Numbered from the stretch's first letter, positions 57,874-62,800 are shown. The stretch: 64,000 bases of DNA from an uncultured Gammaproteobacteria bacterium (GCA_964536515.1 CAZHXI010000002.1:60908-124907), one strand, 5' to 3'. Program-made: numbers and translations. Notes: generated by a model not told the origin, from the letters alone.

Positions 57874-59137
57874 ATGATTGTTTGTATGTTTCGAGGTAAT
57901 TAGGAGCTATGACACCATACGAAGCATCTGGATTCGTAGGGTCTAACCTGTTGCCAACTGTATTGCCACTCTTGAAGGGAAAGACAGACCCAATTGTACC
58001 ATCGGGCTCAACGAACACACCAATATTTCGATCTTTATCAACTTTCAGTAGATTCAATTTCTCTCCATTTTTTCCAAAGCCCAAATAATATGCATAGTTA
58101 CCGTTTGTGGAGTCAGCTATTTCGTTACCCAACTTCCTTAGCTCGTCCGCCCCTCTTACGTTGATGCCAGCTGCGCGGAAGTCAGCACGGTGCCTACTGA
58201 AATGCCAATTCAAATTCTTGAATGGTCTGAGGCCGTCTGCTGATCGCACAGGCCTTAGCGCGGTCGATGCATCGATCGCCCTATCTATAGCTCTTACAGC
58301 CTTCCCCCCGTACTTCACCGCATCGGCCACGTCGTCCACGGGCGAGAAGGTTAGAGCTGCGAAGGCTACCGCCATCCCCTTGTCGAGGCCCGTGGCGTTC
58401 GGGTCGGTGAATGCGGTATGGACGTCCCTCGCGGTCGCGTACGCGTCGTACGCCTGCCAGGCGAGGTAGGCGCCCATGATCAGGAACGGAATAAAGTTGC
58501 CATCCGGGTCGGTGTACTTCACCGGATTATTGGCCGCGTAGGCGTACGGGTGCAGGTACCGCCAGGGGTCTGCCAGTATCCCCTGCAGGTTCCGCTGGCC
58601 CTGGAGCTGGAGGGTCAGGGGGTCGATTTGGGTGAACCTGGCGGACGTCGGATCATAGTACCTCGCCCCGAAGTAGTACCAGGAACTCGGGTCTAATTCC
58701 TTGCCGGTGTAGGAGCGCGCGGGGAGGGGCAGGTCGCCGTTCAGCTTATCGAAGCGGCGGAGGCCGTAGGGCTCCTGGTCCACGGCCGAGGCCAGGTCGC
58801 CGGACTGGCCCGTTCCCAGGGGCGACGAGCCCAGGGCGTCCGGGTGCAGGTACTGGACCGCGGGCGGCTGGGACTTGGGGATGGTCACCTGGGCCAGGCG
58901 CCTGCCGGGGGCGTCCAGGAAGAGGCGGGCGTCGCCGCTATCGTCCTCCTCGTAGGTGCCGGCGTAGTAGGTTACGGACGGGTCCAGCTCGTCCCCCACC
59001 ACGTCGTGCGTGCGGAGGGCGCGCTGGCCGGCGTGGTCGTACGAGATTGAAAAGATAGTCTTCTGGGATGAGAAAATAATGGTCTGCGGCTCGGTGCCGG
59101 TGAAATCACCGGATGGCGAGAGCAAGGTGGAGTTCAA
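57860..59137 (-). CDS. Orphan Rhs C-terminal cassette: partial RHS core (homology arm) plus alternative toxin domain
   Basis: The first ~30 aa are unique, then YDHAGQRALRTHDVVGDELDPSVTYY...DPxGL-like ...YTDPDGN, near-identical to the main Rhs. The last ~215 aa are a distinct toxin tip. Confidence 0.6.
   Translation of the reverse strand: MNSTLLSPSGDFTGTEPQTIIFSSQKTIFSISYDHAGQRALRTHDVVGDELDPSVTYYAGTYEEDDSGDARLFLDAPGRRLAQVTIPKSQPPAVQYLHPDALGSSPLGTGQSGDLASAVDQEPYGLRRFDKLNGDLPLPARSYTGKELDPSSWYYFGARYYDPTSARFTQIDPLTLQLQGQRNLQGILADPWRYLHPYAYAANNPVKYTDPDGNFIPFLIMGAYLAWQAYDAYATARDVHTAFTDPNATGLDKGMAVAFAALTFSPVDDVADAVKYGGKAVRAIDRAIDASTALRPVRSADGLRPFKNLNWHFSRHRADFRAAGINVRGADELRKLGNEIADSTNGNYAYYLGFGKNGEKLNLLKVDKDRNIGVFVEPDGTIGSVFPFKSGNTVGNRLDPTNPDASYGVIAPNYLETYKQSYGVR
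58524..59044. repeat. ~520-bp direct repeat, copy in orphan cassette (near-identical to 60537-61057)
   Basis: Aligned by eye. Identity is highest at 58640-59040 (about 95%) and decays toward the toxin-tip junction. Confidence 0.7.
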
Positions 59138-59272
59138 AATAACGGACTACTCAGACTACCGCCCGAACGGCAGGTGCCCTACTGGCTAGCAGAGCGATAT
59201 AGTTCCACAAGAGGCCAAAGCCGCCCCCGAAGGGGCGGCTTGCCCGGCGATTCAAGTATTGCAGAAAATTAA

Positions 59273-59836
59273 TTAATTTACCCCACCCTTAACATTGCCA
59301 CTATCTAGATCAACTTCAAAAACTTCATCGGCCTCACTGCGTATATCATAGTACTTTCCCACTATCCGACCGTTGGAGAGTTCTACGATGTCGAAACCAT
59401 CGAAGGCGAGCCGCCCCGTCTCCCACTTAACCCCCTCACCGGAATAGGCGACCAATCTCGTGAGGTCTGCAAATACGATCAGGCCCTTCTCAGGAACAAC
59501 TCGAATATCCGTAATTGGCTGGAGCGGTAATTCAACACACGTTAATGGGTCACCGTACCGCACAATGTAGCCACGGCCGTTCGAAACTACGCAGATACCC
59601 AAACCATCTGGCATGGCGAATATGCCATTGACCCCGTTGGGTGCCAATGTGCCGGGAGCGAAAACGCCCAGCCATGGCTCACCGTTTTTCGGTGTAACCC
59701 TCACGATCAAACCATCTTTACCGCCCTGAGTCGATGCTCCCGGGTAGTAATACGTGGGCATGCCAGCGAGCGTCTCCGTGGAAAGCTCAGCCCCATACTC
59801 TACCCTTGATATTTTATCTGATGAGACAGTGGTCAT
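59273..59836 (-). CDS. Candidate immunity protein for the main Rhs toxin tip
   Basis: Starts 18 nt after the Rhs stop; 187 aa; Gly/Val-rich beta-type. Confidence 0.45.
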   Translation of the reverse strand: MTTVSSDKISRVEYGAELSTETLAGMPTYYYPGASTQGGKDGLIVRVTPKNGEPWLGVFAPGTLAPNGVNGIFAMPDGLGICVVSNGRGYIVRYGDPLTCVELPLQPITDIRVVPEKGLIVFADLTRLVAYSGEGVKWETGRLAFDGFDIVELSNGRIVGKYYDIRSEADEVFEVDLDSGNVKGGVN

Positions 59837-59854
59837 ATAATCTTAAGTGTCTAG

Positions 59855-62800
59855 CTAGGGCTGAGGCCTAAAGAAACGATGCATAACGAGTTCCAAAGCT
59901 CCAGACAATGAGGGACGCGTGGCGATTTCATAGATGCCGTTTACTCCGTTGATCGACCCGGGCATTGTGTACATTCTGCTGTCATTTGAATAGCCGGGTC
60001 GCGATTTATTGAAGTAACTTGGTGTGGTCTTAACAGCGCCTTCGCCCATTATGACATCATCGAATGACTCAGGGAAATTGTGGTAAAGCAGATCTCGACC
60101 GTCAATACGCCTATTAAGTTCACGCGCTGAGTACATCCGCATCGCGCTACTCCTGGAAACCGCCCCCTCCGTGCCTGCCGCGCCCCCAACCTTGCCTAAC
60201 GTCGCAGTCTCAATGCCGCCAGCGGTCAAGGCGCCCACAATTGCTACCTGCTCAAGACTCGGCTTTGCCATAAAGTCATTGAATTTTTTTTCAACTCCCT
60301 TTGCCACTGCCTTAGCGGTACCACCGGGGTCGCTCACAATTGCCGCCGAGGCAGCATCAACGTTGGCCATATTCTGAATGGCCATCTCCTGGCCGACGCC
60401 AATGGGATTCTTATTAACTTGGTTCAACACCGATAGCCCCTGGCTAGCCCGCTGAACGAAGCCGCTTATAAACGCTCCTGCGTGAGCCAAGGCAGCCTTT
60501 ATCGAGAAGTTCCCCTCCAAATCTACGTTAGTGAGCGGGTTATTGCTCGCGTAGGCATAGGGGTGCAAGTACCGCCACGGGTCGGCGAGGATACCCTGGA
60601 GATTACGCTGGCTTTGCAGCTGGAGGGTCAGGGGGTCGATTTGGGTGAACCTTGCCATGTCCGGCTGGTAATACCGCGCCCCGAAGTAGTACCACGAGCT
60701 GGGGTCCAGCTCCTTGCCGGTGTAGGAGCGCGCGGGGAGGGGCAGGTCGCCGTTCAGCTTCTCGAACCGGCGGAGGCCGTAGGGGTCCTGGTCAACGGCC
60801 GAGGCCAGGTCGCCGGACTGGCCGGTGCCCAGGGGCGACGAGCCGAGGGCGTCCGGGTGCAGGTACTGGACCGCGGGCGGCTGCGACTTGGGGATAGACA
60901 CCTGGGCCAGGCGCCTGCCGGGAGCGTCCAGGAACAGGCGGGCGTCGCCGGTGTCGTCCTCCTCGTAGGTGCCGAGGTAGTAGGTTACGGACGGGTCCAG
61001 CTCGTCCCCCACCACGTCGTGGGTGCGGAGGGCGCGCTGGCCGGCGTGGTCGTAGAGGTAGGTGTCGCGGTAGCCCTCCTCGCCCGCCCAGTAGGTGGAG
61101 GTGCCAAGGCGGCCGAAGCCGTCGTAGGCGTACAGGTTGCTGCCGACCTCAACCAGGTTGCCGGCGTCGTCCCACAGGAAGCCCATCAGCCCGTCGCCCC
61201 CGACGGTGGCGTGGCTGGCGCGGTACGGATGGCTATTGTAGCCCAGGCGGTACAGGTTGGCGTCGCCGCGGGTCCGCATGTTGCCCAGGCTGTCGTACGA
61301 GAAGGTGGACGACGCGTCCTCGCTGCCGGCGTACGTACCCTGCACGCCGACCAGCCTATCCAGGGCGTCGTAGGCAAAGGTGCGGTCGCTGCCGAGCGGC
61401 TCTACGGATGCATCCACCAAATGGGTAACGTTGCCCACGGCGTCGTAGGTGTAGGAGAGGTCCTGCATGTAGCTGCCCTCCTCACCCGTGGTGCGCCGCG
61501 CCAGGCGGTACCCATCTGCCGGGGTGTACGTGTCCCGCGTTACCAAGCCGTTGCCGTACACAACAGACTCCAGCTGGCCGAGGGGGGTGTAGCTCAACGC
61601 CGTGGCGATCCGCAGCTCGGGTATAGGAATGACTACTTGGCGCTGGGGGCCGCCACTCTGCCAACTCGGCGCGCTCCCGCTGGCCAATGTCCCGTTGTTG
61701 CCGCTCAGACTTAAATCGGCGAGCGTAGTTCCGGTAGCCTCGTTCATTGCCCAGTATCCAACTAGTCCGGCCTGGGCGAGCAGGGGTTGGTTGTAGGTTG
61801 CAGCGATCTGCGACGGGGTGCGGACTGTTTGCCAGATGCGTACTCCTGCCAAGCCGCCGATGAGCGATTCATTGCCGGGCGTGTCATCGTACGCCCAACC
61901 GAGGCGGAGCCAGCTATTATTCGGGACTAGCGTCCACCCGAAGGAACGGGCATCCCCAAGCTGCTGTCCGTCGCGGAAGAACTTCACCTGGCCGTTGGCG
62001 AGATCGTAGGTGAACGCGTAGTGGTGCCAGCCCGTGCCGGCATCCCCCAGGGTCACGGTAGATTGGGCGTAGCGAGTGATCCACTCATTGCCGCCCCAAA
62101 TGCGCGCGTGGAAAAGCAACTTATCATTCCCATCAATCTGGAAGAGGTAGTTACCGCCGTAGCTGACCTGCACATTCCCCTTCGAGACAAGGGTGTAGGC
62201 ACCATTCGCCGGAGCGTTACTACCGTAGGACACCCACGCCTCTACAGTGAGGGTACTTGTGGCATCTAGGGTATCGTTCTCCGGAACCTCTACGTACTGC
62301 AATCCTGAGAACGAGAGAGCCGAGGTGGTTGTGGTCGCCGTACTCGTAACAGAGGCGTTGGGGCGGTAGGTTGTCTCAGCCCAGCGACCGAGACGGTCGT
62401 AGCTGCTGCTCACGTGCGAGTTACTCGGCTCAACCCGCAGCACCTCGCGGCCGGGTAGGTCGAACCGGTACTCCTGGTCGAACCGGGCGCCCGCAATGTT
62501 CCTGCTGACGTACGTGGTACGGCCCAGGCGGTCGTAGCCGTAGGTTGTACCAACGTTCCGATGAATCGCCTCACGCAGCCTGCCCACGCCGAAGCTGCCG
62601 GTGTGGTCGTAGCTGTAGGTGGTGTCTGTACCCGCCGTGGACGGGTCGTTGGCCGTCAACGGGCGGTTCAGCGAATCGTAGGTGTAGTGGGTAGTGGCGC
62701 CGCGGGGGTCGGTGCTAGACGTTACGTTGCCAGCGGCATCGTAGGCGTAGGCCCAGACGTCCGGAACGGATGACGTCGCGTGCCAGTCTGTCTGCGTTAG

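Follow-up and report, generated by a model that had tools for sequence, protein, structure and literature searches.

In Salmonella LT2, a full rhs gene and its immunity gene are followed by a 5'-truncated orphan rhs that has its own tip and immunity gene (STM0291 and STM0292, with rhsI); the two rhs genes share 95% identity over 522 bp, and serial passage selects cells in which the orphan tip has become fused to the main rhs by recombination (Koskiniemi et al. 2014, PMC3967940). Those authors argue that a duplication precedes the recombination, so that immunity to the main toxin stays, and Poole et al. (2011, PMC3150448) present this pair of recombination models too, with the same drawback attached to simple deletion. 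Enterobacterial rhs silent cassettes (Jackson et al. 2009, as related in PMC3150448) and cdiA-CT/cdiI orphans (PMC3150448) likewise combine a conserved core with a variable tip at a PxxxxD(P)xG boundary; as portrayed in that account, such modules are situated behind the main gene, keep a piece of core and are proposed to be reloaded by recombination, ideally after duplication. For the Tc (ABC) toxins, replacement of the TcC hypervariable region by recombination through the RHS core has been proposed (Song et al. 2021, PMC7861908), and the motif PxxxxDxxG is defined for TcC and Rhs proteins in the same paper. Here we describe a 64,000-nucleotide stretch of DNA from an uncultured Gammaproteobacteria bacterium (GCA_964536515.1, CAZHXI010000002.1:60908-124907; hereafter the window), in which an earlier note, made from the sequence alone, had proposed that long direct repeats in an Rhs locus are poised for toxin-tip switching. 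The locus probably consists of one main rhs gene and one orphan rhs C-terminal (rhs-CT)/immunity cassette, able to reload the tip of the main gene by recombination between the repeats.

All features of this locus lie on the minus strand. Read in that direction, the Rhs core leads into tip 1 and immunity candidate 1; a 231-bp spacer containing a hairpin comes next, and then the 518-bp core fragment that opens the orphan, with tip 2 and immunity candidate 2 behind it. The orphan thus lies downstream of the main rhs and the immunity candidate of that gene, in the same orientation; it is truncated at its 5' end, carries a distinct tip and is followed by a small open reading frame (ORF) of its own. 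This is the classic rhs orphan architecture, and both the architecture and its proposed use are already known for polymorphic toxins. The layout is that of the Salmonella pair and, as far as the account in PMC3150448 presents them, of the rhs/cdi orphan modules, from whose enterobacterial members the present locus differs in its uncultured lineage, in having a single orphan rather than an array, and in a main-gene motif that reads DLEG rather than DPxG.

The two repeat copies occupy 60537-61054, where the main gene encodes the final 173 codons of its conserved core (YDHAGQRAL...YAYASNNP), and 58524-59041, the equally long 5'-truncated core fragment at the head of the orphan ORF, which as a whole matches the NCBIfam model Rhs_assc_core (TIGR03696) at 8.6e-17. 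Their alignment is gapless, its offset 2013 bp throughout; 466 of 518 positions are identical (90.0%), which leaves 52 mismatches, and BLASTN gives an identity of 90.3% across 524 columns (bit score 682, E = 0). The repeats are therefore direct and ungapped and lie where the earlier note had placed them, and their identity is above the 80% nucleotide level that it had set as a lower limit, but "near-identical", its term for these 520-bp copies, is too strong for a 90% match. Each copy is in the reading frame of its own gene. At 59041, a position that corresponds precisely to codon Y982 in the visible main ORF, the orphan re-enters the Rhs core; it remains in frame for 173 codons, its homology to the main gene being confined to main residues 982-1164 (visible ORF numbering). 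The guanine-plus-cytosine (GC) content of the repeats is 69%, against 61.6% for the whole window. The only other internal repeat found in the 64 kb is a 73% paralogue pair (37588-37967 and 39182-39562), nothing comparable, and a BLASTN comparison within the window found no homology between the regions downstream of the two immunity candidates.

Because the offset equals 3 x 671, and hence whole codons, and because the alignment is gapless with both copies in frame, any crossover between them would yield an in-frame core/tip 2 chimera with the loss of 2013 bp. The geometry thus bears out two predictions of the earlier note, namely a deletion of about 2 kb and the fusion of the orphan tip, followed by its candidate immunity gene, onto the upstream Rhs. 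Since homology is present on the core side only, a crossover would take the form of a deletion or a duplication, not of a two-sided cassette conversion. Six exact runs shared by the copies (50, 45, 38, 35, 32 and 29 nt, the longest) offer sites for strand exchange. We propose that RecA-type homologous recombination between the repeats would load tip 2, presumably carried silently until then, onto the secreted Rhs scaffold. One route would be the direct deletion of the 2013 bp that hold tip 1, its putative immunity gene and the spacer; the other, as in Salmonella, would begin with a tandem duplication, which would keep a copy of tip 1 together with its immunity gene. The loss of the tip 1 immunity gene by simple deletion, a problem shared with Salmonella LT2, is a point absent from the earlier note. 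That note also spoke of a displacement mechanism; the architecture of orphan-module recombination does fit, but strictly "displacement" describes the origin of orphans (Jackson 2009, cited in PMC3150448) rather than their reloading.

The agreement in length between the shared core of Salmonella (522 bp) and that of the present locus (518 bp) is apparently a coincidence. A related lineage (L025, positions 1-2124; ENA ERZ27254745) has an orphan of its own, in which a 158-aa gene is followed, after a short gap and an in-frame stop, by a core fragment with a third kind of tip; this core fragment starts at the equivalent of main residue ~896, about 86 codons upstream of the start of the window orphan. 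The boundary of such orphans is accordingly not fixed, and a conserved cassette boundary of ~520 bp, suggested by the Salmonella match, was rejected on this ground. In other respects the two systems are set apart by identity (95% in Salmonella, 90% here and 95% only in the core-side two thirds), by the fact that recombination has been demonstrated there and is inferred here, and by the dependence of the Salmonella Rhs on a type VI secretion system (T6SS), whereas the orthologue of the present gene carries SpvB, FG-GAP and TcdB_midN at its N terminus, without T6SS genes in the vicinity.

Identity between the copies rises on the core side and decays toward the tip junction, as the earlier note had observed: it is 95.0% over 58700-59041 (342 bp) and 80.1% over 58524-58699 (176 bp). 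The best single change point, at 58697, separates mismatch rates of 4.9% and 20% (observed value reached in 0 of 5000 permutations, p < 0.0002), and a step fits the profile somewhat better than a linear gradient (log-likelihood -155.0 vs -159.8). At the core-side end the similarity breaks off sharply at 59041/59042; at the tip-side end it is lost gradually, over about 30 bp (about 58493-58523). A single old conversion tract is not claimed as the cause of the step, given that differences at third positions climb steadily along the repeat toward the tip and that the main gene shows the same decay against its orthologue in L003 (from 73.7% to 62.1%). The gradient is therefore, in our reading, a family trait: core sequence that adjoins a tip travels with it. 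An attempt to decide which copy is resident and which incoming, with L003 as outgroup, gave informative sites of 8 to 4 and 10 to 17 and was not decisive. Codon by codon, 44 codons differ between the copies, 33 of them synonymously; third positions account for 38 of the 54 base differences, and the ratio of nonsynonymous to synonymous divergence (dN/dS) is 0.13. Synonymous divergence is 0.15 in the 114 core-side codons and ~1.3 (saturated) in the 59 tip-side codons. The low dN/dS and the preponderance of synonymous differences argue that the fragment evolved as translated Rhs core.

The orphan rhs ORF (57860-59137), a 5'-truncated core fragment joined to a distinct tip, stays open for 393 codons beyond the start of homology, free of frameshifts and stops, through a region of 46% GC. 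Its demarcation motif (58499-58525) reads P-VKYT-D-PD-G and matches the junction P-TKYT-D-PD-G of P0001, the orthologue of the main gene. Similarity between main gene and orphan stops within ~10 codons of this motif, and beyond it the tips cannot be aligned. Tip 2, of 210 residues, is unrelated to tip 1 and ends at 57860. It opens with a linker of 80 mostly helical residues (58253-58492), 63% identical to P0001 residues 2110-2188, and closes with a terminal domain of ~130 aa plus stop (57860-58252; GC 46%), a putative toxin. A word-indexed search of 5.8 billion clustered proteins returned no homologue of any part of tip 2; an exhaustive HMMER search of 1.84 billion representatives with tip 2 returned one protein, P0001, matching the 80-aa linker only. 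Tip 2 has no credible match in Pfam (E up to 10) or NCBIfam, and its single-sequence AlphaFold2 model is unusable, with a predicted local distance difference test score (pLDDT) of 38. As the linker is common to P0001, which ends in an EndoU toxin, and the terminal domain is unique, a second exchange boundary appears to lie downstream of the DxxG junction. The ORF that follows (57253-57873; 206 aa) overlaps the orphan stop by 14 nt and is, by position, the candidate immunity gene for tip 2; a database search with it returned only itself, with no credible Pfam or NCBIfam family.

The 231-bp spacer (59042-59272) between immunity candidate 1 and the core fragment shares no similarity with the main gene. 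Within it, a GC-rich hairpin (59220-59239; GCCGCCCC-TTCG-GGGGCGGC) is followed by only three T and so resembles a terminator without being canonical; the fold energy is -31.3 kcal/mol (z = -3.3). The only start codon at the head of the orphan ORF is a TTG at 59137. Shine-Dalgarno-like motifs are absent before most of the confident genes checked (PGK, aminotransferase, immunity candidates), and a missing motif was thus rejected as a sign of orphan silence, most real genes of the window being without one too. The rarity of such motifs across the window may point to a lineage that makes little use of Shine-Dalgarno sequences.

The gene upstream of the cassette, at 59855-64000 and running beyond the window end, shows at least 1380 codons and is, on its domain content, an Rhs gene: Pfam finds RHS_repeat in five stretches (5.5e-44) and Laminin_G_3, and NCBIfam finds YD_repeat_2x (1.2e-24) and Rhs_assc_core (TIGR03696; 3.5e-14). 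The earlier note had called it a full-length Rhs. The RHS repeats and associated core uphold the identification; full length is not verifiable for a gene that leaves the window, its ORF (59855-63997) being open at that end, where the preceding codon is AGA and not a stop. Judged against the orthologue P0001 (2312 aa), some 936 N-terminal residues lie outside. The Laminin_G_3 (concanavalin-A-like) domain is set inside the RHS repeat shell at 61802-62305 (residues 565-732 of the visible ORF), is kept in P0001 (residues 1504-1665), and could serve for binding at the surface of the cocoon.

Core and tip of the main gene meet at 60512-60538, where the sequence P-LTNV-D-LE-G fits PxxxxDxxG. This PLTNVDLEG lacks the usual proline after the aspartate, which the orphan's PVKYTDPDG retains; the DL(E/D)G variant is found also in the relative L024, which argues for a functional junction class and not a defect. 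Beyond the junction lies tip 1, the 216-residue C-terminal region (59855-60511; GC 52.8% vs 61.6% for the window), whose last ~95 aa (59855-60160) form a conserved toxin-type domain (HNFPES...MHRFFRP) with invariant H, R and E. Other Rhs proteins, and a PT-HINT protein, end in homologues of this domain, which supports a toxin role. Tip 1 has no Pfam match (E up to 10) and nothing credible in NCBIfam; by these comparisons its terminal domain defines a toxin-type family absent from Pfam. An AlphaFold2 model of the domain from a six-sequence alignment reached pLDDT 70.7. No fold was assigned, the best Foldseek match in the PDB having E = 0.36, and a profile search of PDB sequences found nothing. 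Immunity candidate 1 (59273-59836; 187 aa) starts 18 nt past the rhs stop and has no credible match in Pfam (E up to 10) or NCBIfam; its putative role as the tip 1 immunity gene is suggested by position only.

The orthologue P0001, encoded at L003 8130-15068, is built of SpvB, FG-GAP, TcdB_midN, RHS, Laminin_G_3 and EndoU domains, and the main gene matches it at 64.6% amino acid identity over 1190 aligned columns (main residues 2-1174). Its match to tip 2 covers only the first 80 residues, and it shares the orphan-type junction; that junction and linker thus serve a full-length scaffold of this lineage that ends in another toxin, and a tip of this class does operate on such a scaffold. The relative L024 carries the main-type junction (PLTNVDLDG) followed by a barnase-family ribonuclease and Barstar. 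With the orphan-type junction on P0001 and the main-type junction on L024, both types serve exchangeable toxins. P0001 has no PAAR domain, and its neighbours in L003 are housekeeping genes; no TcA, PAAR, VgrG or other secretion gene was found in the 25-kb L003 locus, and no TcA gene within 8 kb upstream or 10 kb downstream of the Rhs gene, a distant tcA being possible. Judged on P0001 and L003, then, the PAAR- or VgrG-binding N terminus and the vgrG/T6SS linkage that mark T6SS effectors are lacking, the N terminus and the upstream region of the window's own gene lying outside the window; no vgrG or other T6SS family was found by Pfam among 24 ORFs sampled from the 54 kb downstream of the low-GC island described below, 4 of the 24 being unmatched.

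There is also a likeness to the natural TcB-TcC fusions of the Tc toxins, since P0001 combines TcB-type domains in its N-terminal half with an RHS cocoon, a PxxxxDxxG cleavage motif and an exchangeable C-terminal toxin. It differs in that no TcA lies near P0001 in L003 and that only the RHS half is visible in the window; the adjacent small immunity-type genes (Barstar in L024) point to bacterial rather than insect targets. The "orphan TcC" of the Tc literature is a complete tcC far from tcA and tcB, unlike the 5'-truncated cassette of this locus. Beyond these close relatives, the genome species representatives scanned yielded only Rhs proteins from other phyla, at 28-39% identity, plus a 32-residue segment at 55%, and the metagenome contigs a single match at 25%. 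Tandem core-end repeats of 170-1200 bp at 87-100% identity were found in Rhs loci of metagenome-assembled genomes of Calditrichaceae, Cytophagia and Spirochaetota, which shows the architecture to be commonplace.

The source looks like the assembly of an uncultured organism, and repeats as similar as 90-95% pose difficulties for assembly; the second copy, or the way it is linked, might thus be an artefact, for example of strain variants of one gene joined in tandem or of a tip 2 drawn from another rhs gene of the genome. This we consider very unlikely in the light of independent assemblies, namely two short-read contigs from Logan SRR12487045 (L001 and L002) and one JGI contig (L026). L002, 100% identical to window 60647-59012, contains tip 1, immunity candidate 1 and the spacer and goes on for 30 nt into the truncated core, so that the truncated copy and its illegitimate junction are real. 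L001 is 100% identical to window 58634-56587 and carries the orphan-specific core variants, tip 2, immunity candidate 2, an 85-aa ORF and about two-thirds of a 128-aa ORF; L026 matches 60556-59571 exactly. Both tip contexts and the junction of spacer and truncated core are thus confirmed by independent contigs. L001 and L002 both end within exact runs of the repeat, as expected of k-mer assembly, and leave 58635-59011 unspanned; with one full and one truncated core, however, the arrangement of the window is the only simple linear solution.

A more serious alternative, to which we allow a real though clearly minor share of the probability, is that the cassette is a relic of past displacement: an old tip, pushed downstream by the arrival of tip 1, that is not used for switching and is kept, if at all, for immunity against neighbours armed with tip 2. 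The abrupt boundary at 59041/59042 is what an illegitimate join would leave, the low GC of tips and immunity genes points to horizontal arrival, 10% divergence reduces the efficiency of recombination, the low dN/dS could predate capture, and the orphan-free orthologous locus L003 implies that orphans come and go; immunity collection is, moreover, among the models of Poole et al. (PMC3150448). Against this, the toxin-coding part remains intact over its 393 codons, which pure immunity retention leaves unexplained, as PMC3150448 also argues, and the core-side 342 bp are at 95%, equal to the Salmonella pair that recombines. Relic and switching are compatible readings and hard to separate. It is improbable, by comparison, that the orphan is expressed alone from internal starts and acts intracellularly with its immunity gene as a type II toxin-antitoxin pair. 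Internal expression has been reported for the Salmonella orphan (PMC7043789), in-frame ATG codons stand just past the orphan junction at 58477 and 58375, the want of a Shine-Dalgarno motif is uninformative where even bona fide starts rarely have one, and the 14-nt overlap of the orphan stop with the start of immunity candidate 2 suggests coupled translation. A scan for sigma-70-like sites, however, found no promoter within 57860-59272, that is, within or just upstream of the orphan; it found only two in the whole scanned region, below the shuffled expectation. Promoter scans are weak evidence here, and the conserved enterobacterial rhs P2 promoter is not assessable in this unrelated lineage.

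Several considerations weigh against tip switching itself, the reading that we nonetheless prefer. Divergence of 10%, and of 20% near the tip, should depress RecA-dependent recombination far below the level expected for identical repeats, especially where mismatch repair is active. The identity gradient, being matched in the comparison with the orthologue, is not specific evidence for exchange within this locus. Direct deletion loses immunity candidate 1 and would expose recombinants to the tip 1 of their siblings. Tip 2 has neither a homologue of its terminal domain nor a usable model; its toxicity, like the protection ascribed to both immunity candidates, is putative. No recombinant or duplication junction was seen, in public contigs that break inside the repeat and so cannot reveal one.

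Four further unannotated minus-strand ORFs, of 85, 128, 239 and 264 aa, occupy a low-GC island (54974-57221) between immunity candidate 2 and a conserved ATP-grasp gene. They have no credible family in Pfam (E up to 10) or NCBIfam and may be extra immunity or accessory genes; the 128-aa ORF lies at 56538-56924, and the 239-aa ORF begins with a Cys-rich motif, CGCFYC...CPKCG. The tips, immunity candidates and downstream small ORFs have 45-57% GC, consistent with horizontally acquired cassettes. In L003 the island between the Rhs gene and the ATP-grasp gene is wholly unlike that of the window and holds Trypsin_2, ABC, Fic, NUDIX and methyltransferase genes; synteny resumes only at window 54392.

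Elsewhere in the window, the 73% paralogue pair mentioned above belongs to two tandem genes for cofactor-independent phosphoglycerate mutase (37358-38944 and 38946-40544, both on the minus strand; iPGM_N and Metalloenzyme domains), which are ~73% identical at the nucleotide level over part of their length and adjoin enolase, with PGK nearby. A perfect 30-nt palindrome (GTAGGGACGAGGCGCGCCTCGTCCCTAC core) at 30718-30747, between convergent ORFs at 28360-30711 (plus strand) and 30767-31225 (minus strand), is probably a bidirectional terminator.

As an example of a known architecture, the locus adds breadth rather than a new principle. Its Rhs protein has, to judge from the orthologue, a TcB-like N-terminal half, and belongs to a lineage barely represented in genome and metagenome databases. 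We suggest only tentatively, and with more doubt than confidence, that an Rhs of the BC-fusion type, built of SpvB, TcdB_midN and RHS and lacking a TcA or T6SS in its neighbourhood, uses in this uncultured bacterium of ~62% GC the orphan-reloading switch so far demonstrated only for a T6SS Rhs, and holds in reserve a tip whose terminal 130-aa toxin domain represents a family without detectable relatives in the 1.84 billion representatives searched. Two uncharacterised toxin-type domains are thereby flagged, that of tip 1, with relatives only on other polymorphic toxins, and that of tip 2, without detectable relatives. Given the organism or its reads, the locus would offer a clean natural test of whether core repeats of 90% identity still support tip switching outside the Enterobacteriaceae.

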